From: a virus
Taxonomy: Duplodnaviria; Heunggongvirae; Uroviricota; Caudoviricetes
Strand: one strand, 5' to 3'
IMG/VR virus record: IMGVR_UViG_2534681697_000026
Length of the DNA: 14,190 bases
Shown: piece after piece, positions 1,178-14,190 of the stretch
How the letters are laid out: the number at the start of each line of letters is the position of its first letter
Position numbering within the stretch: position 1 is the first letter of the stretch
Notes under the pieces: generated by a model
What the model was told of the DNA's origin: nothing
Seen by the model: only the letters and a program-made list of their open reading frames with translations
The model's database searches: none
Position numbers and translations under genes: made by a program

Positions 1178-2040
1178 GCTTAGTCAGCCGTTGTCTCCGG
1201 GTGTCGCGTGCGCAGTTGCACGTCATTCTCAGACGAACCGATGACTGGATGGATGGCCGCCGCAGTCGTCACACTGATGATACGGATGTGCTTCTCCGTA
1301 TACACCATGTTATCGGAGAGCTGCCCACGTATGGTTATCGTCGGGTATGGGCGCTGCTTCGCAGACAGGCAGAACTTGATGGTATGCCTGCGATCAATGC
1401 CAAACGTGTTTACCGGATCATGCGCCAGAATGCGCTGTTGCTTGAGCGAAAACCTGCTGTACCGCCATCGAAACGGGCACATACAGGCAGAGTGGCCGTG
1501 AAAGAAAGCAATCAGCGATGGTGCTCTGACGGGTTCGAGTTCTGCTGTGATAACGGAGAGAGACTGCGTGTCACGTTCGCGCTGGACTGCTGTGATCGTG
1601 AGGCACTGCACTGGGCGGTGACTACCGGCGGCTTCAACAGTGAAACAGTACAGGACGTCATGCTGGGAGCGGTGGAACGCCGCTTCGGCAACGATCTTCC
1701 GTCGTCTCCAGTGGAGTGGCTGACGGATAATGGTTCATGCTACCGGGCTAATGAAACACGCCAGTTCGCCCGGATGTTGGGACTTGAACCGAAGAACACG
1801 GCGGTGCGGAGTCCGGAGAGTAACGGAATAGCAGAGAGCTTCGTGAAAACGATAAAGCGTGACTACATCAGTATCATGCCCAAACCAGACGGGTTAACGG
1901 CAGCAAAGAACCTTGCAGAGGCGTTCGAGCATTATAACGAATGGCATCCGCATAGTGCGCTGGGTTATCGCTCGCCACGGGAATATCTGCGGCAGCGGGC
2001 TTGTAATGGGTTAAGTGATAACAGATGTCTGGAAATATAG
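1135..2040 (+). CDS. insD: IS2 transposase OrfB (InsD), DDE catalytic domain; normally made as an OrfAB fusion by -1 frameshifting
   Basis: 301-aa ORF in the -1 frame relative to insC, overlapping its 3' end; rve/DDE integrase-like sequence (…WCSDGFEF…DNGSCY…[11 protein letters not shown]…). Confidence 0.85.
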
Positions 2041-2127
2041 GGGCAAATCCACATACCGAAATGGTACTATTGAGTATTTATCCAGTAGGTTACGATGCCA
2101 TTCCACCCAACTGGTGAGGCATCAAGG

Positions 2128-2394
2128 ATGTACAGCAAATACGACGAGGCGCAGTTTCACTTGATACTTCCGCATGAACTCCACGCGAAAATTAAACAGC
2201 GTGCGAAGATGAATAACAGATCGCTGAACTCAGAGATAATTGCAGCGATTGAGGAATCATTGGATAAACAAAGCTCTGCATCAGTTTACATTGACGATGC
2301 AGAGCGTATGGCAGAACAACAATCTGATATGGTTAAGAAAATGGTTTTTGAAACGCTTAAGACCATGTATAGCAATAATAAAAAGGAAACATAG
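2128..2394 (+). CDS. mnt: Mnt-like ribbon-helix-helix (Arc/MetJ superfamily) repressor
   Basis: N-terminal RHH motif QFHLILPHELHAKIKQRAKMNNRSLNSEIIAAIEESL; C-terminal DDAERMAEQQSDMVKKMVFETLKTMY resembles the P22 Mnt tetramerisation region (…NDAERLADEQSELVKKMVFDTLKDLY…, from memory). Start chosen at ATG 2128 (GAGG 9 nt upstream) rather than the track start 2095, which has no RBS. Opposite strand to the late genes, as for P22 mnt. Confidence 0.65.
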   Translation: MYSKYDEAQFHLILPHELHAKIKQRAKMNNRSLNSEIIAAIEESLDKQSSASVYIDDAERMAEQQSDMVKKMVFETLKTMYSNNKKET

Positions 2395-2464
2395 AAATCT
2401 AGTTTCCGGCTAAAATGGCATTGCCTTCATGATATCCTGTGAAAAACTAAGGAGAGTTAACCAT

Positions 2465-2689
2465 ATGAAAAAATCACTGTTAATTATCCCGCTTCTGCTG
2501 GTTGGATGCGCAAAAGTAAGTGACTATCAAGCAAGTTGCGAACAACGCTATCAAAAGCTTAGCGATATGGCTAATTGCCTTGATGCCAGTGTGAAGAACG
2601 ACTCACGCATGGCATCAGCACCAACACCTAAGCTGTATGTCCTTGCTGCAAAGATGCTCGGGCAAGGTGTCGATGAAGGCAAGACTTGA
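2465..2689 (+). CDS. small secreted lipoprotein (74 aa precursor)
   Basis: AAGGAG Shine-Dalgarno 9 nt upstream of ATG 2465; signal peptide plus lipobox MKKSLLIIPLLLVG|C; mature part about 55 aa with two further Cys. Track ORF 2429-2689 starts 12 codons earlier without an RBS. Confidence 0.55.
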   Translation: MKKSLLIIPLLLVGCAKVSDYQASCEQRYQKLSDMANCLDASVKNDSRMASAPTPKLYVLAAKMLGQGVDEGKT

Positions 2690-2930
2690 GCTTCAGAATC
2701 TTTATGTTCAATTACAAAGCCAAGAACAAGCCCAACAAATAGCACAAAGCCAAGCATTCCAGCAGGCTTTATTGAATTACCAGGCTGTAAACACAATGCA
2801 AGCGATCGAGCAAAAAGCGCGCCAGCCTGTTATAACTCAACCTTACCCAACACGCGTTGACACATATACAAACTGCAATTCAGGATTTGGAAACACGGTA
2901 ACATGCAACAGTAGCAGTAATATCAGGTAG
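2673..2930 (+). CDS. Gln-rich hypothetical protein (85 aa) with predicted coiled-coil-like N-terminus and Cys/Asn/Thr-rich C-terminus
   Basis: ORF overlapping the lipoprotein 3' end in another frame; AAGG 5 nt upstream of ATG 2673; strongly biased composition (QLQSQEQAQQIAQSQAFQQALLNYQ). Could instead be the continuation of the lipoprotein gene after a frameshift. Confidence 0.4.
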   Translation: MKARLELQNLYVQLQSQEQAQQIAQSQAFQQALLNYQAVNTMQAIEQKARQPVITQPYPTRVDTYTNCNSGFGNTVTCNSSSNIR

Positions 2931-2944
2931 TTATATCTTATCTT

Positions 2945-4792
2945 TTATTGCTGTTCTGCTGTAATTTGGCTTGAAAGTATAGGGCGTATCGCATTTGCAG
3001 CATTATTTAGCGCTCTTTCATAAGCTGGCGTTCCAGTTTTAGTGTTTGCCAGACGTAAGAGAGCATTCCTTGCTGCTTTGGACTCATACAAGCGCATCAT
3101 TGCACCAAAACCAGCCTCAAGCCCCATTGATACGCCAAGGGTCGCAGTTGCGCCAATCGTCCTTATCCTGTTGGCTTGCGATTGCCCCGTCTGAGTTACT
3201 ACATTTGCGGTGTCTGACCTTGCTGTTTGCTGTAGAACTTCATGAAGAGCATCAAGCTCTTTCATGTGCTTTCCAGAAAAAATAGTGTTGTAAATTTCAC
3301 CGCCTGACTGAGATTTCAGCTTATTAACTTCAGTGATGAACTTGGCTGGAGAGTCCCCGGCCTTTTCCGCTATTTTGCTGACGTAAGCTGCACGCATAGC
3401 ATCTTTCCCCTTATCATCCAGTGCGCTCCAGATTCGTTTCACGTCAGATGGTTTTCTGCTTAATACAACGGTATTTATAAGTTCAGGACTGGCTTCACTG
3501 CTTGCCTTGTTGAGCTTGTTAGCAATGTTTTTATTAAGCACCTTATTATAAACGTTTGCATAATCGGAATTTGCTTTAAGGTATTTTGCTGCGTCTGATG
3601 CACCGAGGTTTTTAGCAACTGCGTTACGAAGGTCTTTTGACATTGCATTCTCTACCATATTGGTAGCTGCTTTTGCCTGGTTGGGGAAGACCATAGCATC
3701 TCCCTGAACATTAGATCTAAATGCTGTTCTGTGCTGACGCAAGAGATCAAACGTAACATCCAAATCAGTTGCAGGGTTTGCTAATTCTTCACGTAGGTTA
3801 CGCAAGGATGTAAGCAGGCTTTGATTGGCAGACGTCCCAAGCCGTTCCTGTCTTGCGATCGCTGTATTCAGAGCATTCATGGTATTTGTGGTATCAACTG
3901 CGGCATTACCCATTTTATTGGTGACGTCATTGATAACAGCGCCAGCGGCATCCTTCCGCCCCCTTAACGTGGTGGTCAGAGATTTCACCACATCATCAGG
4001 GTTGTACTCACCAAAACGGTCAAAATAATTACTTACCAGCTTACTACGCGTTGCATATTGCTCCGCTCGCTTTGAGCCTGTCCCGAGCAAAGCCCCCTCG
4101 GCATCCTGAGTAAGGCCGCGAGTGAAAGCATTTTTCGGCGGGATAACATCAGATGTCATTGGTGTCACGCCCATCGATTCTGATGTGGCAATTTTCTTCG
4201 CCACTTCTGGCGCAATATCACCTTTTATAGCCGTTATTCCACGCCCTATTCCCTTTGCTGCTGCGGAAAGAACACCCTGAGCGGCAAGGTTAACTCCGGC
4301 ATTTTTAGCTGCATTTTGTGCGAAATCGCCTTTCTGATTTGCGGCCTCTGCCAGTGATCCAATAGCCATGCTTCCTGCCGTTCCAACTCCTGGAACTAAA
4401 TACCCACCAATTGTTTCACCGGCTTGCGCGTAGGTGTCTGTCGGTCTGTCTACTGGACGATAAACATCATCCAAAACCTTGGGTCCACCAAGCCCCTGAC
4501 TGATTGCATTAATCAGACTTGCGCCGCCCTGCAATACGTCAAATGGTATGTTTACCAGACCACGACCAGCCTGCTCTGCAATTTGCCCTGCACTTTGCCC
4601 GCCTGTGAGCCAATCGCCAGCTTGTTGCATCAATGATGGTTCTTCACGTGCTGGTTCATTATTGGCCTGATTAACTGTTTGTTGCTGAACAGCCTGACCA
4701 GCAAAATACTCATCAATGGCGGTGCCAATATCTTCCATGCTCGTACCATCAGGGAAGGTAAATGTCTTACCGTTTGCAGTTACTTTCATCAT
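2945..4792 (-). CDS. P22 gp16-like ejection (E) protein, 615 aa
   Basis: Last gene of the virion operon, length close to P22 gp16 (609 aa), Ala/Gly/Asn-rich low-complexity composition typical of ejection proteins; start overlaps the stop of the upstream gene by 4 nt (ATGA coupling). Confidence 0.75.
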
Positions 4793-6255
4793 TCCACCGT
4801 AAATTGAATGCCTGATTTTGAGGTATATGATCCGGATTGACTCTGCTGCTGTTGGGTATTTGCCGGTTGTTGGCTATTGCTCTGTTGTTGACTATTTGCA
4901 GCACTTGAAACCACCAAAGCATCATAAACGCGACCAGACTGACCACGTAATGAGTTATATTGGCCCTGCATTTTTCGCATTTTTGTTTCAGTAGCAGCCT
5001 TGGAATCACCGGGCTGAGGCAGGTACATTTTGGAATACTCCTGCATCTCTGGCAGAGTAATTGCTGCACCTGTTTCTGGGCGCAAAATTGCATACAAGGC
5101 GTCTCTCGCATTTACCATATATTGCTGCTCCGCTGGTGATAGGCTTAAATTTGCAATAGTCCCATCACCAAGAGAGCGATTTATTAATGCAACTCGCTTA
5201 GGGTCAATGCTTTTACTAAGCTGATTCATTGAGTCCATTGAATCTTTTAATCGCAAAGCAAATCCTGCCGCCTTCTTGGAACCCTCATTAGCCTTATCTA
5301 TGATGCTTTGCGCTTGTGGCAAGCTAATTGGTTTAATGCCATCACCAGATATAGGTTGGTTTAGTTTTCCGGCTTCCTCGCTGCCATCGGTGTAATACTT
5401 AGTTACCGAGCCATCAGGATTGGTTTCAACCTTAAGTAATTTCTTAGCATTGGGATTAATTCCCGCCGCTGCCGCAAATGCCGCTGCACCATCTGGATCC
5501 GCCTTTAACATTTGCGCGTACTGATTGTAATTCTGCATTGCGGCTGTTGGTGCATATGCTGACGTTAACGCATTTGCTCGGCTAATATCCTGCCCTCTCG
5601 CCTGAAGTGCTTCTCCAGCCTGATTGCTGCGGATTGTCTCTGCCAGTCTGCCTCGGTCAATCTCACGACCAGCCATCTTGTCCTGAACATTGAAGTAATC
5701 AATCGGACCAAGAGCAGCCATTCCAAGGTGATCAACAAACTCACCAAATCCTGAAGGGTTCTGCTGATACATCTGAGCAACGCTGTTAGGGTCAACACCG
5801 ACGCGAGTCAGTTCCTTGGCGTTGTTTTGCAGCCATGATTGCATTGCTTCTGGAGACGATGACGCAAGGCGTGCGCCAGCCGCTAAGGTGCCGATAGAAT
5901 TACGCTGATCTTCATCAATGAATCCCATGCCTTTACGAACGGATTCAATCTGGTCTGGATATTGAGTAGCCAACTGACGCAAAGCACCGCGATCACCAGA
6001 CGCATAAGCATTAGCGTATGCCTGCTGAAATTCTTTCTGCCGCTGAGCCTGCTTTTCCTGCTGAAACCCCCCCGCAATACCTGAAAGGCCTTGCAAAGCA
6101 GTCAGCCCAACATTGTTAGCGCCTGAACGCTCAATATCATTGTTCTGCCTGATAAGCTGAAGCGTATTGCCGATGTCATTTACGCTCGGAGCGTTTGAGT
6201 TGACGCCGCCGATACCAGCCAACAATCCGCCATTTGATCCTTGCCAAGTAGCCAT
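4789..6255 (-). CDS. P22 gp20-like ejection (E) protein, 488 aa
   Basis: Position between gp7 and gp16 homologs, size close to P22 gp20 (471 aa); AAGGGG RBS 8 nt upstream; Gln/Ala-rich. Confidence 0.75.
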
Positions 6256-6264
6256 GATTACCCC

Positions 6265-6418
6265 TTAAAACAACGAACCAAGCAATCCGATACCAGCACC
6301 AATGCCAGCGCCCCAAGGTGTTGATGTTCCCAAAAGGCTGGCAAGACCTGCACCGGCAATCGCACCAGACGTTCCGCCACTAATTGCAGTCTGAAGACTT
6401 GATGGTTTATTGGCATTA
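6265..6418 (-). pseudogene. 3' fragment of P22 gp7-like ejection protein gene, separated from its 5' part by an IS insertion
   Basis: Reverse-strand frame reads (A)NANKPSSLQTAISGGTSGAIAGAGLASLLGTSTPWGAGIGAGIGLLGSLF-stop, in frame with the 5' fragment when the IS and one TA are removed; stop lies 9 nt upstream of the gp20 start. Confidence 0.7.
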
Positions 6419-6429
6419 GGCTGTGTCCC

Positions 6430-6945
6430 TTAATTACGTAAGCGTTGATAAAAGAGTCGGATGCAGCCCAGTTTCACCATCGCCAGGTAATTTCTCGCCG
6501 TTTTGTCGTAACGCGTGGCGATGCGGCGATATTCTTTCAGCCGCCCAAAGCACCGTTCAACGACATTACGATTGCAGTACGCATCACGATCAAGCTGTGC
6601 ACGTCCATCCGATGCCATTTTCTCATTTGACTTTCGGGGGATTACTGCCTTTATACCGTTATTTTTCAGCTCGTTGCGCAATGCGCACCCTGAATACGCT
6701 TTATCAGCCAGTACCGCATGTCCACGGCGTTTCATGCTGCCGTTCTGACGCTGAACGCCAATCCCGTCCAGAAGTCGTTGCGCGAACTGGCTTTCATGAG
6801 CTTGTCCGGGGCTTAGCACGATATTTAACGGGAGGCCACTTCCGTCTGTTGCCAGATGGATTTTGGTGCCAAAACCGCCGCGAGAGCGACCCAGCCCATT
6901 ATCTCCGTCGATATCGGGATGTTTTTTTGAGCACCGGCGGCACAT
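6430..6945 (-). CDS. IS5-family transposase OrfB (DDE catalytic part), accessed by -1 frameshift from OrfA
   Basis: Acidic/conserved motifs DIDGDNG, LADKAYSG and NVVERCFGRLKEYRRIATRYDK, consistent with a DDE transposase; overlaps orfA in the -1 frame across an A7C run (plus-strand gtttttttgag at about 6921-6931). Confidence 0.8.
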   Translation of the reverse strand: MCRRCSKKHPDIDGDNGLGRSRGGFGTKIHLATDGSGLPLNIVLSPGQAHESQFAQRLLDGIGVQRQNGSMKRRGHAVLADKAYSGCALRNELKNNGIKAVIPRKSNEKMASDGRAQLDRDAYCNRNVVERCFGRLKEYRRIATRYDKTARNYLAMVKLGCIRLFYQRLRN

Positions 6946-7274
6946 TTCAGCGCCCGGATATTACTGCCATCCAGCGCGGTGGCAGACCAGTCAATAAAGC
7001 CGTTTGCATCAAGTAGCGAAAGCAACCTGTTGAAAATAATATTAATCACGCCTGACTTTGACCATCGGTTAAAGCGGTTATAAACAGTTTTCCATGACCC
7101 ATATCGTTCGGGTAAATCGCGCCATGGTGCACCGGAACATAACACCCAGAACATGCCATTGATGATTTTACGGTGCTCAGCCCATGGGCGTCCGGCCCGT
7201 GGTGTGGCGGGTTCAGGAGGTAACAGGGGCTTGATGATGGTCCATGCCTCATCGGGAAGGTCGTAGCGAGCCAT
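6825..7274 (-). CDS. IS5-family transposase OrfA (N-terminal DNA-binding part)
   Basis: MARYDLPDEAWTIIKPLLPP… N-terminus typical of two-ORF IS5-family transposases; starts 60 nt inside the IS end. Confidence 0.8.
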   Translation of the reverse strand: MARYDLPDEAWTIIKPLLPPEPATPRAGRPWAEHRKIINGMFWVLCSGAPWRDLPERYGSWKTVYNRFNRWSKSGVINIIFNRLLSLLDANGFIDWSATALDGSNIRALKCAAGAQKNIPISTEIMGWVALAAVLAPKSIWQQTEVASR

Positions 7275-7334
7275 AGTTCAATATGTTGTGTAAACAGACA
7301 GTTACTATAGCTCAGATGATTAAGGGACACAGCC

Positions 7335-7872
7335 TAGCAGCGGCAAGAGCTGCGCTTTGCTGTGCAATGCTGCTCATGTTGTTGGCGTACGTCTGCCCGG
7401 CGTTTGCCTGACCTTGAAGTGCACCAAGCCCAACGTTTGCCAGATTGTTGTAATTGCTCATCTGGTTTGATAACCAAGACTGACCGAGAGTAGGCGCGAT
7501 CGTAGCCAGTTGATTGCTTGTGGCTGTCGAACCAAGTCCACCCGTCGCCTCCGCAGCAGCAAGACTCTGGTAACGAGCCTGACCTGCAAGGTCTTTATAC
7601 TGCTGAGAGTTGTAATACTGATTAAGTGCCTGCCCCTGACCTTCTAAACTGGAAAGGTTCTGAAGCTGGTTAACATACTGCTCCGCAAGAGGCGTGAACG
7701 GAGCAAGGTTTTTCATGATCGTCTGCCACTGCTGATTTTGCAGGTCTGCGGCATACTTCTGAGCTTCTGCTGCATACTTTGCGCTTTTATCGGAGCCACC
7801 TTTCCCGCCTTTTTCAGGGCAATAAGGTTCCTCGCCGCGCAGTTTTCTGCCCAGCTTAAATGCATATAACAT
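7335..7872 (-). pseudogene. 5' fragment of P22 gp7-like ejection protein gene, interrupted by IS copy A
   Basis: N-terminus MLYAFKLGRKLRGEEPYCPEKGGKGG… in the position expected for gp7, immediately downstream of gp14; the track ORF 7312-7872 reads through into the IS end and stops there. With the 3' fragment it reconstitutes 229 codons. Confidence 0.75.
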
Positions 7873-7874
7873 AG

Positions 7875-8333
7875 CTATCTCCCGTGATTCAGGAAGTCGA
7901 TTAGTTCTTCGCGTGTGGCGCTGTAAAACGTCACGTCATCCACGCCTTTAAAGTATTTCTTGATGGTTCCGACACGCTTAAGGCCAATCATTGCGCAGTA
8001 CATCTGCCCGTGGCGGAATTTGCGTGCAGCGAACGATGTGACACACTGAACGGTGGTGTTAGTCAGAATGTATCGCCAGAACGCCAGCCCGATTTCCTTG
8101 CTGAAGCCGCGAATCTCTGGCAGGTACATGGCGTGGCAATCGAATGTCAGCGGCTGAATCTCCTGATAGTAAACAATGCCGCCGAACTGCCCATGCACGT
8201 TAACCTCAAAGTAACGGCATTCAGGCTTGTAGTCGTATCCATCGCCGTTGTTGCTCCCGGCGATAATGTCAGGGTGATTTCCTACTGCTTCGATCAGGTC
8301 GATGTTTCGCGTTGGTTTGAACTGAATCATCAC
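7875..8333 (-). CDS. P22 gp14-like protein (assigned by position), 152 aa
   Basis: Sits between the tail needle and gp7 homologs with 4-nt ATGA overlaps on both sides, as in the P22 virion operon; I cannot confirm the sequence itself from memory. Confidence 0.55.
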
Positions 8334-9178
8334 TGCTCCGCGATTATCTTGATGGTTGTGGCAGTAAACGCCGCACCATTTGACTGAATGGTTAACGTGC
8401 TGCCATTTGTGACAAGAAAGCCGTCTTTATCCACGCTGAAGAACGTAGCTAACAAGATGTTATCGGTTGTTGTCGCCGCATTACGACTGCTGACCAACGT
8501 GTCAGGAACAGAGCCGGAAAAGGTTAGCTGCATTGACCTGTTTGCGGTTCCACTGGGCCACGTCCCGACAATCGACAACTTGAAGAACAAGGTTTTGTTC
8601 TCGTTGAACACAACCATCTTGTTGTTAACGGTGTCGAAGAATGGTGCCAACGAGCCGGATGACGGCGTGAGCGTTTTCAGCAGGCTAACAAGGTTAGTCG
8701 GCGCTGTCGGGATGGTTACAGATACGCCAGAGTAAACAACCTCTGACTTCTTGCGAGTAGTGGCATACTCCAGAGCATCGATGCGCGTTTCATGGTCTGA
8801 AAGCGTGTTTTGAATGGCGACAACTTCATCAGTCAGATAATCAATATCGTTTTCTGCTGTCGTTAATCGCGAATCAAGGCCGACTATCGCTGCTTCTGCG
8901 TTAGTGATCCTTGTTTCGTGGTCCTGTATCTTCGCTTCAGCTGATGCCAGTCGAATTTCGTGATCAACCAGAATCACATCCTGCTCATCGTTCCTTACCT
9001 GCGCGTCATAAGCGCCCTGTCCGGACTCGTTGGCCTTATTCACCACGTTACCAACATCAGTACCCTGTGCGATAACGTAAAGCAGATACGACTGCGAGAA
9101 GATATTGCGTGGAAGGATTGATGTATCGAGCCGCGTCGCCTGAACAATAACAGGTGTATTGAGATTCGAATCCGCCAT
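8330..9178 (-). CDS. tail needle protein (P22 gp26 family) with an extended C-terminal domain, 282 aa
   Basis: N-terminal [43 protein letters not shown]… matches the conserved gp26 N-terminal region followed by coiled-coil heptads; C-terminal about 130 aa is Thr/Ser/Asn-rich and unlike the short P22 tip. Confidence 0.8.
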
Positions 9179-10596
9179 TACTCAATCCTTATCTGAGTGC
9201 CAGACAGAGTGACAGGTGACTTCGTGATAATGCGCAATTTGAAGCCGACATTTTTCCTGATGCGCCCTACTCGCTTCCACAAAACGCGTTTGTCGTAAAC
9301 GAACGGTTCATTCTGCTCAATCATCTGCTCACGTCCGTAATTGATGCCGTCAGTGGTTGCAGAGAGGAACAGGCGGTCGGCGTACTGAGCTACGCCAGTG
9401 GATGATTCCACCTCCAGATCGAAGCATCTGGCGTTATCCGCTTTGAACAACGGAGTAAACAGCAGGTGTTCCTGCTGCTTGTCGTACTGGCTGCTGATAT
9501 CGAACTGCAGTTTCCCGGTCACGGATTCCAGCTTATCGCCGCACGTTATCTGATTGCCTTCGTAAATGAAGTCGATAGCGCGGTACACATCGTCATACAG
9601 GCCTGTTTTCAGCACACACCATTGCGGACCATTGGCGCTTGAAGATGCATCGTACACAAGGACGTGACGCGGAAGATGGATAATCAGCAACTCATGCGCA
9701 TCAAATCGCAGAGACTCCATCACACCATCAGCCAGTTCATCAGCAGTGTAGGAGCGAAGTATTTTCTCAATGCTCGCGCTGGCGATTGGTGATACCTGAC
9801 CGGAACCGATGATGTACACAGACGGCGCACCCGTTGCCGGGTTGCTGATGAAAGCATAGGAATCAGCAAACGGCGTTTTGCAGTAAGTCCCGGCGATGCC
9901 TTTTTGCACCATCAATGATGGCTGGGCGACATACAAAGCAGCACCAACGGTGGTTGCACCAGTCAGGGAGAAATATTCAATCGTCGATGAACCAAAGCAG
10001 ACGATGAAGTCTCGCCATGTCCCTATGCCGATGATGCCATCAGGCTGAGATTCTGCGCGATATTGTGCGCTGTATCGGTCAGGATGTGATTCGTCTTCAA
10101 GGTCAGTGATAAACCATGAATCAGTACCGTCTTTTGACCACGCATAACGCCCACGTAAGCGCGTAATGTCACGAACCGAACCTAGCTCATACTGAGTGAA
10201 TCCGCTATCTGTAGGCCAGTTTGAGACGGTTTTAATCGTGCCATCATAGCGATACTCGACCAGTTGACCATTAACACCTATCGCCTGAGATGTACGACCA
10301 TGCGCCATTGATACGCGACCACTTCCGGCGACGTCACCGACTTCACTTTCTCCTTTGTACAGCTTGCCACCACACACACGATAAACAGCATTCTGCGCCA
10401 TGTTGTACTCGACGCCGCGAGATACACCGTTCACATCAGAGCGTTTGGCAATGCCAGGGAATGAGCGAAGATATCCGCTGCTGTTCAGGATTTCTTTGGG
10501 TGTAGCCAGCATATTCACTGGCAGATAGTCGATATAGTCGGCGTTTCGAAAGTCTTTGCCGACACCTTTCATAAGCGGAAGTTGCTGAATAGGCAT
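9178..10596 (-). CDS. P22 gp10-like tail accessory (portal-closure/tail hub) protein, 472 aa
   Basis: Same length as P22 gp10 and correct position between gp4 and gp26; stop overlaps the tail needle start (ATGA). Confidence 0.85.
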
Positions 10597-10604
10597 TTAT
10601 TCAC

Positions 10605-11087
10605 CTATGAATTTGGGATATCGCCATCAATCAGAGGGAGATCGCCTGGATAATATCGGTCAGATGTGAACACGTCATATTTATTACCCTGTCCTACAGG
10701 AAAATCTCCACGTCGTCGCATTGAAGGAACAACCAGAGTGTCGGTCATCAAGGCATCATATGAGCGTTGGGCGTTACTGAGAACTTGCGGAGTTGGCTCA
10801 AGGCTGTAATCAGATAGCATTCTCAGCAATAACTGATAGCCTACTGCGTGTTTGTATTTTCTTGGAAGACCTGACTCATCATCTGGTAATGGCTGCTCAT
10901 CTCCAGTTGCGAAAGCGTAACCAATGTCGCCGGGGTTAATCATCCACTCGGACATCATATCTTCCAGATCATTTACACCATCTTCAATTGATTGCGGCTC
11001 AACATCAGTCAGCGATGCATTAGAAGCAATAGCAAACTTACGAAGCGCAAAAAGGACGATCTCACCCTTTGTCAGTACTGTTGCCAT
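10605..11087 (-). CDS. P22 gp4-like head-to-tail adaptor / tail accessory protein, 160 aa
   Basis: N-terminal [42 protein letters not shown] resembles P22 gp4 (…[34 protein letters not shown]…, from memory); first gene after the coat-like gene. Confidence 0.85.
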   Translation of the reverse strand: [160 protein letters not shown]

Positions 11088-11247
11088 TGTCTGCCGCCTT
11101 ACGACCTCGCTTACTGGTCGGTTTCAATTCATCAACTGAGGCAACAAAGCCCAACTTTTCGAAAAACTGGAAGTCTTTTTCTGCGATAACGGCCTGTACA
11201 TGCCCGGATTCGTTATCTGCGGCAAGGAATACACTCATGCGATCCAT
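11062..11247 (-). CDS. hypothetical small protein (61 aa) between coat-like gene and gp4
   Basis: Good RBS (TAAGGAAACAAT-ATG) directly after the coat-gene terminator; overlaps the gp4 start by 26 nt in another frame. No recognisable motif. Confidence 0.3.
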   Translation of the reverse strand: MDRMSVFLAADNESGHVQAVIAEKDFQFFEKLGFVASVDELKPTSKRGRKAADNGNSTDKG

Positions 11248-11257
11248 ATTGTTTCCT

Positions 11258-11284
11258 TAAAACATAAAAGGGGCGTAAGCCCCT
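11258..11284 (-). terminator. rho-independent terminator/attenuator hairpin after the coat-like gene
   Basis: Minus-strand sense: GGGGC-ttac-GCCCC followed by TTTTATGTTTT, starting 6 nt after the coat-like gene stop. Confidence 0.55.
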
Positions 11285-11289
11285 TGTTA

Positions 11290-12306
11290 TTACGGATTAC
11301 CGAAGAACTGACCGCCCATGTGAGGGTTAAAGCACACATATGCAGGCAGTAAGTCAAAGCGCATTTTTTGCACGTTGGCATCGCCATCTGCGTATTTATG
11401 TACGCGGATGGAGAAACCTTCATATGTTGCAACAGCAGAATCAATACTGTGCAGTTTCGGCAGTGGGATAGAGCCAAGTCCACAGAAGAACTTGTTATAG
11501 AACAGGTTTGGCTTCATTGTCTGGCTAGCAGTGCCTACTACAGATACGGCATCGTTTGCCGCTACCTGACGACTTACAGAGTTGTACTGCGGGTTTGTAG
11601 TGTCATAAATCGGAACACCAGAAAGCGTAACCGTCACATTGCCACTGCTGTCTGAATTAGCATCAGCAGTAACCGTTGCAGTGAAGCTAATTGGTGTGGC
11701 TCCGTTATACAACGCCTGTTTGGTCTGCTGTTGCAGCCAGTAGGTATTGGTGAATTTAACCTGATCACCAGCTTTCAGAAAACCTGTAACGCTGGCTGTC
11801 GCTCCGGTCAATGTTACAGTGAACTGGTATGAGTCTTTAACTGCGTTATAGGTAACAGTTGGCTGTGTTTTGACTGTCAGTGTTCCGCCAAATGCCCCCT
11901 GCGTACGAGAGGCAAGCCCATTAGACATCAGTGCGCGAATGCCGCCAAAATTGGTTGGGATCTGTGCATTCTCCCATGCAGTACGAACCAATTGATCTGA
12001 AGCGTGCAAACCAGTCTGCGCATCAGCAAGTCGCTGTGCAGACCATGGATCCATTACAGCATAGTTTTCACCTTCATTAACGCCGAGGTCTTTCAGGAAA
12101 GATGCCGTCTGCGCAACATCAGACCATTTGGTGATTGGAGTATTGGGGCTACCAAGTGACAACGCACCGTTATTCATCATGAAGTGAGCAAGCTCTGTTT
12201 CAAGGTCGGTAACGATTCGCTGGCGAACCGGCGCGAGAATTTCTTCCAGTTGGTTAAGCTTGATCGCTTCCTCCAGTTGCTGATATTCAACAACAACAGT
12301 GATGTA
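11290..12306 (-). pseudogene. major capsid (coat) protein-like gene with Ig/telokin-like insertion, 5' end disrupted by IS copy B
   Basis: Track ORF 11290-12180 (296 aa) has no RBS at its Met, and the frame stays open for 42 more codons upstream, right up to the IS boundary. Position immediately upstream of gp4; C-terminal part has beta-rich Thr/Val repeats and a layout reminiscent of the P22 coat C-terminal half. Confidence 0.5.
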
Positions 12307-12366
12307 GGCTGTGTCCCTTAATCATCTGAGCTATAGTAACTGTCTGTTTACACAACATATTGAACT

Positions 12367-12816
12367 ATGGCTCGCTACGACCTTCCCGATGAGGCATGGA
12401 CCATCATCAAGCCCCTGTTACCTCCTGAACCCGCCACACCACGGGCCGGACGCCCATGGGCTGAGCACCGTAAAATCATAAATGGCATGTTCTGGGTGTT
12501 ATGTTCCGGTGCACCATGGCGCGATTTACCCGAACGATATGGGTCATGGAAAACTGTTTATAACCGCTTTAACCGATGGTCAAAGTCAGGCGTGATTAAT
12601 ATTATTTTCAACAGGTTGCTTTCGCTACTTGATGCAAACGGCTTTATTGACTGGTCTGCCACCGCGCTGGATGGCAGTAATATCCGGGCGCTGAAATGTG
12701 CCGCCGGTGCTCAAAAAAACATCCCGATATCGACGGAGATAATGGGCTGGGTCGCTCTCGCGGCGGTTTTGGCACCAAAATCCATCTGGCAACAGACGGA
12801 AGTGGCCTCCCGTTAA
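12367..12816 (+). CDS. IS5-family transposase OrfA
   Basis: Identical 149-aa product to copy A orfA. Confidence 0.8.
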   Translation: MARYDLPDEAWTIIKPLLPPEPATPRAGRPWAEHRKIINGMFWVLCSGAPWRDLPERYGSWKTVYNRFNRWSKSGVINIIFNRLLSLLDANGFIDWSATALDGSNIRALKCAAGAQKNIPISTEIMGWVALAAVLAPKSIWQQTEVASR

Positions 12817-13211
12817 ATATCGTGCTAAGCCCCGGACAAGCTCATGAAAGCCAGTTCGCGCAACGACTTCTGGACGGGATTGGCGTTCAGCGTCAGAACG
12901 GCAGCATGAAACGCCGTGGACATGCGGTACTGGCTGATAAAGCGTATTCAGGGCGCGCATTGCGCAACGAGCTGAAAAATAACGGTATAAAGGCAGTAAT
13001 CCCCCGAAAGTCAAATGAGAAAATGGCATCGGATGGACGTGCACAGCTTGATCGTGATGCGTACCGCAATCGTAATGTCGTTGAACGGTGCTTTGGGCGG
13101 CTGAAAGAATATCGCCGCATCGCCACGCGTTACGACAAAACGGCGAGAAATTACCTGGCGATGGTGAAACTGGGCTGCATCCGACTCTTTTATCAACGCT
13201 TACGTAATTAA
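12696..13211 (+). CDS. IS5-family transposase OrfB (DDE domain)
   Basis: 171-aa product, 2 aa different from copy A orfB; -1 frame relative to orfA. Confidence 0.8.
   Translation: MCRRCSKKHPDIDGDNGLGRSRGGFGTKIHLATDGSGLPLNIVLSPGQAHESQFAQRLLDGIGVQRQNGSMKRRGHAVLADKAYSGRALRNELKNNGIKAVIPRKSNEKMASDGRAQLDRDAYRNRNVVERCFGRLKEYRRIATRYDKTARNYLAMVKLGCIRLFYQRLRN
12714..12720 (+). other. A_AAA_AAC slippery heptamer, predicted programmed -1 frameshift site joining OrfA and OrfB
   Basis: orfA frame reads gcT CAA AAA AAC atc; shifting -1 at the A7 run gives …AQKK-HPDIDGDNG… and a fusion transposase of about 280 aa. Confidence 0.55.
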
Positions 13212-13348
13212 GGGACACAGCCTAGATGCCGCTATCAGATCCTCCACTTTGAAAGCGAAGCTTATACATATCTTTTACATCAGCAATCTATTGTTAATCT
13301 CCAATCAATGTTACGTTGTCATCTCACTCATGCTTTGGAGGTAGTGAT

Positions 13349-13528
13349 ATGTCTTGTCCAAAATGCGGTTCTGGAAATATTGCAAAAGAAAAAACAATGC
13401 GTGAATGGTCTGGTGATTATGTGTGCTGCGATTGCGGATACAACGACTCTAAAGACGCATTTGGAGAGCTTGGTAAAAACGAGTTTGTCAAAATTAATAA
13501 AGAACGCGAAGGCAACGAAAAAAGCTAA
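13349..13528 (+). CDS. small zinc-ribbon protein (59 aa), CxxC…CxxC
   Basis: GGAGG Shine-Dalgarno 7 nt upstream of ATG 13349; MSCPKCGSGNIAKEKTMREWSGDYVCCDCGY has two Cys pairs; Lys/Glu-rich tail. The track start at 13316 lacks an RBS. Confidence 0.5.
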   Translation: MSCPKCGSGNIAKEKTMREWSGDYVCCDCGYNDSKDAFGELGKNEFVKINKEREGNEKS

Positions 13529-13593
13529 TTTATTTATTCATATATGAAAACAATGTAACCAATATTCGAATTGAAGAACTGAAAGAACACCAA

Positions 13594-13616
13594 GCCGCCT
13601 GATGGCGGTTTTTTTA
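13594..13616 (+). terminator. rho-independent terminator
   Basis: CCGCC-tgat-GGCGG stem-loop followed by TTTTTTTT. Confidence 0.5.
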
Positions 13617-13629
13617 TTTGGGGTAGTAG

Positions 13630-13845
13630 ATGGCTGCAATTCACATTGTATCAATAACATGCAATGCAATTCAGATAGTTGCTTGCATTATCTTTGTTTT
13701 CTCAATCCTTCGCTCCCGACGATATTCTCCAGCAATTAACCGACATCCTGCACAGGTTGAAGCCGTCAGGATGGCTATAGAGTTACGAAATGAGATGAGT
13801 AAGGCATTACTGGAGATGGGGAAACCATTCACTGACAAACATTAA
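13630..13845 (+). CDS. hypothetical small protein (71 aa) with hydrophobic N-terminal segment
   Basis: ORF begins just after the upstream terminator with GGGG 6 nt before the ATG; N-terminal IVSITCNAIQIVACIIFVFSIL could be a transmembrane helix. No recognisable family. Confidence 0.3.
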   Translation: MAAIHIVSITCNAIQIVACIIFVFSILRSRRYSPAINRHPAQVEAVRMAIELRNEMSKALLEMGKPFTDKH

Positions 13846-13922
13846 GAGTGTAAATAAAGAAATCACACCGCCTCACACTCGATGAGGTATTTTCATTTAT
13901 CAAGATATCCAGACCTACCATC

Positions 13923-13945
13923 GCCGCATCAATGCGGTTTTTTTA
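13923..13945 (+). terminator. rho-independent terminator
   Basis: CCGCA-tcaa-TGCGG stem-loop followed by TTTTTTT, about 75 nt after the stop of the 71-aa ORF. Confidence 0.5.
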
Positions 13946-13989
13946 TTACCTGATTTGCAGGTTCGATTCCATATTCGGAGATAGCACTC

Positions 13990-14190
13990 ATGCAACACGA
14001 ACTACAACCTGATTCACTGGTTGATTTGAAATTCATCATGGCTGATACTGGCTTTGGTAAAACCTTCATCTATGACCGGATTAAGTCCGGCGACCTGCCA
14101 AAAGCCAAAGTTATCCACGGGCGAGCAAGATGGTTATATCGTGACCATTGTGAATTCAAAAATAAGCTCTTAAGCCGCGCCAATGGGTAA
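13990..14190 (+). CDS. AlpA/Vis-type prophage regulatory protein (small HTH regulator/excisionase-like), 66 aa
   Basis: LKFIMADTGFGKTFIYDRIKSGDLPKAKVIHGRARWLYRDHCEF fits the AlpA family pattern (L..TG.s.sTIYr.i..G.FPkp.k.G.r..W); GGAGA RBS; complete ORF ending at the window edge. Confidence 0.65.
   Translation: MQHELQPDSLVDLKFIMADTGFGKTFIYDRIKSGDLPKAKVIHGRARWLYRDHCEFKNKLLSRANG

Follow-up and report, generated by a model that had tools for sequence, protein, structure and literature searches.

Phages Sf6 and HK620 and the prophages that resemble them (Lederbergvirus) share a well-described gene order. The coat gene of Sf6 (gene 5; 4871-6142, 423 amino acids (aa)) is preceded by the genes for the small and large terminase subunits, portal and scaffold. 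An almost intact prophage in Escherichia coli 631 shows the complete order at a chromosomal site between argW and dsdC: beginning on the dsd/csc side, torI, the early-left genes, repressor/cro/cII, replication, nin and antiterminator are followed by lysis, terminase, portal, scaffold, coat, gp4, gp10, needle and gp14, and then by gp7, gp20, gp16, immI, tailspike, intS and argW. KplE1 (CPS-53), a cryptic prophage of E. coli K-12 and a defective P22-like remnant, and the prophage of E. coli TUM1887 share with E. coli 631 this site, a torI gene beside dsdC and the P22-like phage type. In Shigella, adjacent deletions mediated by insertion sequences (ISs), as seen with IS1 and IS903, and recombination between IS copies drive genome reduction. 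Here we analysed 14,190 nucleotides (nt) of viral DNA (IMG/VR record IMGVR_UViG_2534681697_000026; hereafter the window), which hold part of an Sf6/HK620-like prophage. Its host is Shigella boydii ATCC 9905, as protein names indicate, and its place in the chromosome is the argW-dsdC site. An ISSfl7-like IS, the second of two copies in the window, abuts a coat gene that lacks its 5' end. We conclude that this copy is very probably the scar of an internal deletion in the prophage.

Protein, DNA and Pfam matches identify 11290..12306 on the minus strand as the 3' part of a major capsid (coat) gene of the Sf6 type, comprising codons 86-423 and the stop codon. The coat frame is open from 11290 as far as the IS, that is, over 338 codons, and on its upstream side it is ended by an in-frame TGA within the terminal repeat of the IS. 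BLASTP aligned the 338-codon frame without gaps to residues 86-423 of Sf6 gp5, with 333 of the 338 residues identical (99%). The Pfam family PF11651 spans about 423 aa including the N-terminal arm region; here it was matched only over model positions 83-423 of 423 (E = 4e-112). At the DNA level, the sequence leftward of 12304 is 98.9-99.5% identical to the coat genes of Gally, N7, Sf6 and HK620. The match to Sf6 begins at Sf6 nt 5128, which is coat nt 258. The TA at 12305-12306 corresponds to Sf6 5126-5127, the first two bases of the Tyr86 codon TAC, and doubles as the flank of the IS. Since Sf6 reads GGTAAC-TA-CATCACTG at this spot, the TA adjoining the IS on the coat side is native coat sequence. 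Coat nucleotides 256-1272 are kept in the window, and exactly 85 codons are missing. The resemblance to gene 5 of Sf6 and its homologues in HK620, Gally and N7 comprises the 99% identity over residues 86-423 and the terminator downstream: a stem-loop just past the coat stop (11267..11285, minus strand) matches a terminator and lies at the place homologous to the annotated t-coat of Sf6. Sf6, however, has coat codons 1-85 and scaffold, portal and terminase genes ahead of the coat gene, and the remnant has none of these. A preliminary description of this DNA had an IS cutting the coat-like gene near its 5' end and the frame open from 12180 up to the IS. Both statements held: the boundary falls at 12305/12306, and the frame is open beyond its first start codon for 338 codons in all.

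In the solved structures of the Sf6 coat protein (PDB 5L35, 7SP4), the capsid chains span residues 1-423 or 2-423, so the missing 85 residues belong to the mature subunit. From the loss of these N-terminal residues, we infer that the coat remnant, be it the 338 open codons or the shorter open reading frame (ORF) considered below, is unable to build a capsid.

The first start codon in the coat frame is the ATG at 12180, which gives a callable ORF of 296 aa (11290-12180). The ORF might be an intact gene, with the IS merely in its upstream region; it does have an ATG, and gene callers do call it. An intact homologue would be expected to align with it over its full length, but the ORF corresponds to residues 128-423 only of Sf6 gp5 and to positions 124-423 of 423 of PF11651. 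Moreover, coat homology does not end at the Met codon but runs 42 codons further upstream, up to the IS. The same 296-aa product is also called in a metagenome scaffold from the European Nucleotide Archive (ENA; L006), where a scaffold gene stands ahead of a full 423-codon coat gene of the Sf6 type (1963-3234) in which codon 39 has become a nonsense codon (GAA to TAA). There the call arises because the nonsense codon breaks a full gene, which again shows that the 296-aa ORF is a fragment. The probability that this ORF is an intact gene is negligible. The finding is of use chiefly for correct annotation: in S. boydii ATCC 9905, what is called a 296-aa "major capsid protein" is a pseudogene fragment.

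The IS at the end of the coat frame occupies 12305..13224 (plus strand; copy 2). It forms a 920-nt inverted repeat with a first copy at 6417..7336 (minus strand), and the two copies differ at 3 of the 920 positions, a similarity far beyond chance. Copy 2 proper comprises 916 nt (12307-13222) with a TA on either side. In both copies, the terminal inverted repeats have arms of 27-30 nt (83-85%), and each copy carries two overlapping ORFs of 149 and 171 aa. In copy 2, orfA lies at 12367-12816 and orfB at 12696-13211 in the -1 frame, with a run of seven A residues within the overlap. The NCBIfam profile NF033580 (IS5 family) was matched above its cutoff by both ORFs, at positions 2-112 by orfA and 112-257 of 258 by orfB; Pfam DDE_Tnp_1 was also matched by the transposase. 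Copies in E. coli are 99.9% identical and annotated as 'IS5-like element ISSfl7 family transposase', ISSfl7 family being the name used by RefSeq. An accession-based literature search returned nothing about the host genome and, for the element, only a mention that ISSfl7 disrupts fimD in S. boydii serotype 7 (PMC4374849).

At the site of copy 1, Sf6 reads GCCGCTGC-TA-ATGCCAA without interruption, and the window has a TA on both sides of the IS. The comparison shows that TA is the target of the ISSfl7-like element and is duplicated upon insertion. The gene hit by copy 1, in what is a simple insertion at nt 540-541, is a DNA-transfer gene of the P22 gp7 type, whose halves lie at approximately 6265-6416 and 7337-7872. 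A 186-aa ORF at 7312-7872 ends in IS-derived codons, and a 52-aa ORF at 6258-6416 is an out-of-frame artefact. In its sequence identity, its overlapping ORFs, its terminal inverted repeats and the TA duplication at copy 1, the element itself is an ordinary ISSfl7. Copy 2 differs from a simple insertion of ISSfl7 in that its two flanks are contiguous in no intact relative.

On the far side of copy 2, the sequence is of the early-left type. Homology to HK620 hkaE, to Sf101 and to four E. coli prophages begins at 13225, the first base past the IS, and from there rightward the window matches the early-left region of HK620, HK633, Sf101 and many E. coli prophages. Position 13225 corresponds to position 2092 of the HK620 record, 28 nt before the stop of hkaE, a DUF551 gene of the eaA-like kind. 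The window holds only these last 28 nt of the eaA/DUF551/ead-type early-left gene (13225..13252, plus strand; MPLSDPPL and stop); the remainder of the hkaE-type gene is missing. Next comes a small early-left gene of the Eag type (13349..13528, plus strand; 59 aa, zinc-ribbon-like). It is called in the complete genome CP026875.1, shows a weak zinc-ribbon match and stands at the place where Eag is annotated in relatives. Then follows torI (13990..14190, plus strand), the excisionase gene of KplE1/HK620-type phages, whose product, 66 aa long, has the same sequence as TorI of E. coli 631 (WP_001163428.1). The order agrees with HK620, where hkaE is followed by hkaD (Eag), hkaC (TorI/excisionase) and attP. 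The torI gene marks the attR-proximal end of the prophage and adjoins dsdC, as in elements of the HK620/Sf6/KplE1 type; beyond torI, the host genome continues with dsdC, dsdXA, emrKY and evgA (CP026875.1; dsdC, dsdX and dsdA also in the draft contig AERN01000049.1). What lies upstream of the coat remnant is the IS, the tail of an eaA-type gene, Eag and torI, and neither a scaffold nor a portal gene is present there in the window. These findings agree with the preliminary description, which had seen no head-gene context upstream of the coat gene but AT-rich DNA with small plus-strand genes. The GC content right of the IS is 0.37-0.44 vs about 0.49 in the coat region.

In intact phages, the two points now separated by the IS are far apart. 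In HK620, the flanks enclose 22,713 bp (2093-24805); in E. coli 631, the distance between the start of torI and coat codon 86 is 24.6 kb. We took the exact size of the deletion from HK620, since the early-left module of E. coli 631 is without the conserved 28-nt tail. The stretch that is lost comprises the remaining early-left operon along with recombination, immunity, replication, nin, antiterminator and lysis genes; it also includes the two terminase subunits, portal, scaffold and the first 85 codons of the coat gene. As in intact prophages, the coat gene and the other late genes run on the minus strand, and the plus strand carries the eaA tail, Eag and torI, with dsdC beside them. Neither the order nor the orientation of the flanks departs from the native state, which makes this a junction of the deletion type and not of the inversion type. 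A single IS between formerly distant points of the same orientation is also what IS-driven deletions in Shigella leave behind. A deletion that removed the coat 5' end together with scaffold, portal and terminase had been one of two possibilities offered in the preliminary description, with a look at homologous prophages as the check. In Sf6 and E. coli 631, scaffold, portal and terminase do precede the coat gene, and the suggestion is supported but was an understatement: by comparison with HK620, about 22.7 kb are gone, including lysis, nin, replication, immunity and recombination.

The other possibility was a naturally shorter coat protein of about 354 aa, starting with MYKLRF at 13269 and cut only by a simple, TA-duplicating insertion of the IS. 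This proposal had a basis in the sequence. As reported, about 15 codons resume beyond the IS before stops appear in all frames: upon removal of the IS and one TA, translation from the ATG at 13269 yields MYKLRFQSGGSDSGI and runs on in frame into the coat remainder, an uninterrupted frame of 353 aa, with stops just upstream of this ATG in all three frames. A TA also stands on both sides of the IS. An in-frame continuation is, however, expected by chance in one case out of three. The 15 resumed codons are the antisense of the tail of the early-left gene and of the spacer after it, DNA that in HK620, Sf101 and E. coli prophages is conserved at a distance of about 22.7 kb from the coat gene, and they have nothing in common with residues 71-85 of Sf6 gp5. 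In addition, the coat proteins of all intact relatives with 99% identity (Sf6, HK620 and E. coli 631) are 423 aa long, and the Pfam model is matched only from position 83. We regard a short coat type as refuted; to revive it, a functional phage coat protein starting MYKLRFQSGGSDSGIYITV would be needed. The case may serve as a calibration: an in-frame continuation across an IS can be a coincidence, and comparing each flank with an intact relative settles the question quickly.

The junction could also be an artefact of assembly, with contigs mis-joined across the 920-nt repeat. Short-read assemblies do break at the IS; a Logan contig of 5,025 nt (L005, 3 samples) is bounded by two copies. The same junction is nevertheless found in the 5.16-Mb complete chromosome CP026875.1, which we compared over 10 kb on either side of the coat gene and which showed 2 mismatches in 12.9 kb. 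AERN01000049.1, a draft contig of 235 kb from an independent assembly, is identical to window positions 1290-14190 (0 mismatches), and a further IMG/VR record (UViG 2850796239_000003) equals the window across the junction. Because draft and complete assembly agree, a mis-join is extremely unlikely.

It is also conceivable that the missing 22-24 kb were moved rather than lost, either as an IS-carrying circle that re-integrated at another ISSfl7 copy or in a larger IS-driven rearrangement. Targets for such an event would be plentiful, as ISSfl7-type copies occupy up to 36 places in one related genome, and the other end of the prophage is likewise bounded by an IS (an IS2-like element that has unlike flanks and adjoins an Rhs gene; see below). 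Against relocation, both flanks of copy 2 come from the same prophage in native order and orientation, as a simple deletion gives. We also searched for the reciprocal junction, in which coat nt 240-257 would adjoin an IS end, and it was absent from the viral, GTDB-representative and metagenome contigs; these collections are without the host genome, and the result argues only weakly against relocation. The IS-coat junction of the window itself had no match in the GTDB representatives, and the host genome is evidently outside that collection. On balance, we consider relocation of the segment unlikely.

What carries the deletion is the observation of one IS between two points of the same prophage, which in the intact phage lie about 22.7 kb from each other. 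The deletion was presumably made through the IS, for which we see two routes that appear about equally likely. Two directly repeated copies of ISSfl7 could have recombined with each other, the first located at the TA in coat codon 86 and the second at the eaA tail. Alternatively, the transposase could have generated an adjacent deletion from one ISSfl7 copy into the other site. Three points count against our interpretation or limit what the junction can tell. First, the window reads TA just before GATGCCGC on the eaA side, but all six relatives examined have TG there, so that a native origin of the TA on this side is not demonstrated; a native TA would place a TAG stop nine codons before the end of the eaA-type gene. 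Second, a TA on both sides of copy 2 is expected under every route, which makes the target duplication uninformative. Third, the lost DNA may survive elsewhere in the S. boydii genome, beyond the part of CP026875.1 that we compared.

The 28-nt tail of the window carries two private substitutions. In exact-match scans for this allele, viral contigs returned only the window's own IMG/VR record and metagenome contigs returned none; no IS-free copy was found among them. In relatives, the tail (WMPLPEPPL and stop) is conserved, with copies at 4001-4028 of contig L007 and at 1501-1528 of contigs L008 and L010-L013, and the genes upstream of it vary (DUF551, ead/Ea22-like, dATP/dGTP pyrophosphohydrolase). 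This variety marks the 28-nt tail as a mosaic joint of lambdoid early-left regions, and it is exactly the edge of this joint that coincides with the IS junction.

Between the two IS copies lies a block of late genes on the minus strand (7337..12304): the 5' part of the gp7-type gene, gp14, the gp26 needle, gp10, gp4, a homologue of Sf6 gene 6 and the coat remainder, identified by their Pfam families and arranged as in Sf6 and E. coli 631. Including gp20 and gp16, the late order that the remnant shares with Sf6 is gene 6 homologue, gp4, gp10, gp26, gp14, gp7, gp20 and gp16 types. We considered an inversion between the two inverted IS copies and rejected it; the gp7-type gene continues without a break from one side of copy 1 to the other, and gp20 and gp16 lie collinear with the block. 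The same two observations leave a composite-transposon reading of the block unsupported. The layout, with inverted IS copies bracketing 4,968 nt of late genes (6417-13224), does resemble a composite transposon, and there is no sign of movement as a unit.

The gp4, gp10, gp26 and gp14 genes kept together with the coat ORF between the inverted copies look intact. A function for the remnant can be imagined: the truncated coat ORF, if expressed (for example, by read-out from the IS), might act as a dominant-negative capsid subunit and poison the assembly of incoming Sf6/HK620-like phages, or the 6.8-kb IS-flanked block might move as a composite transposon. We found nothing in support of either idea; a promoter scan for expression of the 296-aa ORF gave promoter-like sites at chance level, and the outer and inner flanks of copy 1 are contiguous. 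Both are highly improbable.

The far end of the prophage is also rearranged. The late region of the window ends in an Arc/Mnt-type gene, followed by an IS2-like element (721-2051) and an Rhs fragment. An intS gene next to the tRNA-Arg gene argW, the counterpart of torI-dsdC in HK620/Sf6/KplE1-type elements, was not found there, and the antirepressor, tailspike, intS and argW expected at the Arc/Mnt end are all absent. The IS2-like element measures 1331 nt, belongs to the IS3 family and contains a called gene with the Pfam domains HTH_21/rve. IS2 duplicates 5 bp at its target. The flanks of this element are unlike each other, ATGGC (716-720) vs CATAC (2052-2056). It joins the C-terminal tip of an Rhs protein (ORF 154-723) to the Arc/Mnt region of the prophage, and the IS end supplies the Rhs stop codon. 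This junction is a second IS-bounded rearrangement in the remnant. Compared with prophages of the KplE1 type, the remnant thus differs in two respects: an ISSfl7-like IS stands at the deletion endpoint, and the intS/argW end is replaced by the IS2-like element and the Rhs fragment.

With the coat gene cut, an IS in the gp7-type gene and the other end cut by the IS2-like element, we regard the element as a dead prophage remnant. The region represents an inactivated prophage unable to produce particles and adds one more case of IS-driven gene loss in Shigella. Both the event and the element are of kinds already known, and the case is one of ordinary prophage decay.

A prophage of the same type and at the same argW-dsdC site has decayed independently, through an internal deletion without an IS, in E. 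coli TUM1887 (L001, 11742-14136). In this case the coat gene is intact. The scaffold gene is without its N-terminus and continues straight into a DUF551 gene to which it is fused, and a fragment of gp4 lies next to a DNA-transfer gene.

Finally, we noted two terminator-like GC stem-loops with T runs between Eag and torI in the window, at 13594-13618 and 13923-13947 (GCCGCCTGATGGCGGTTTTTTTATT and a copy with 84% identity), 329 nt apart. They flank an ORF of 71 aa (13630-13845) with no family match.

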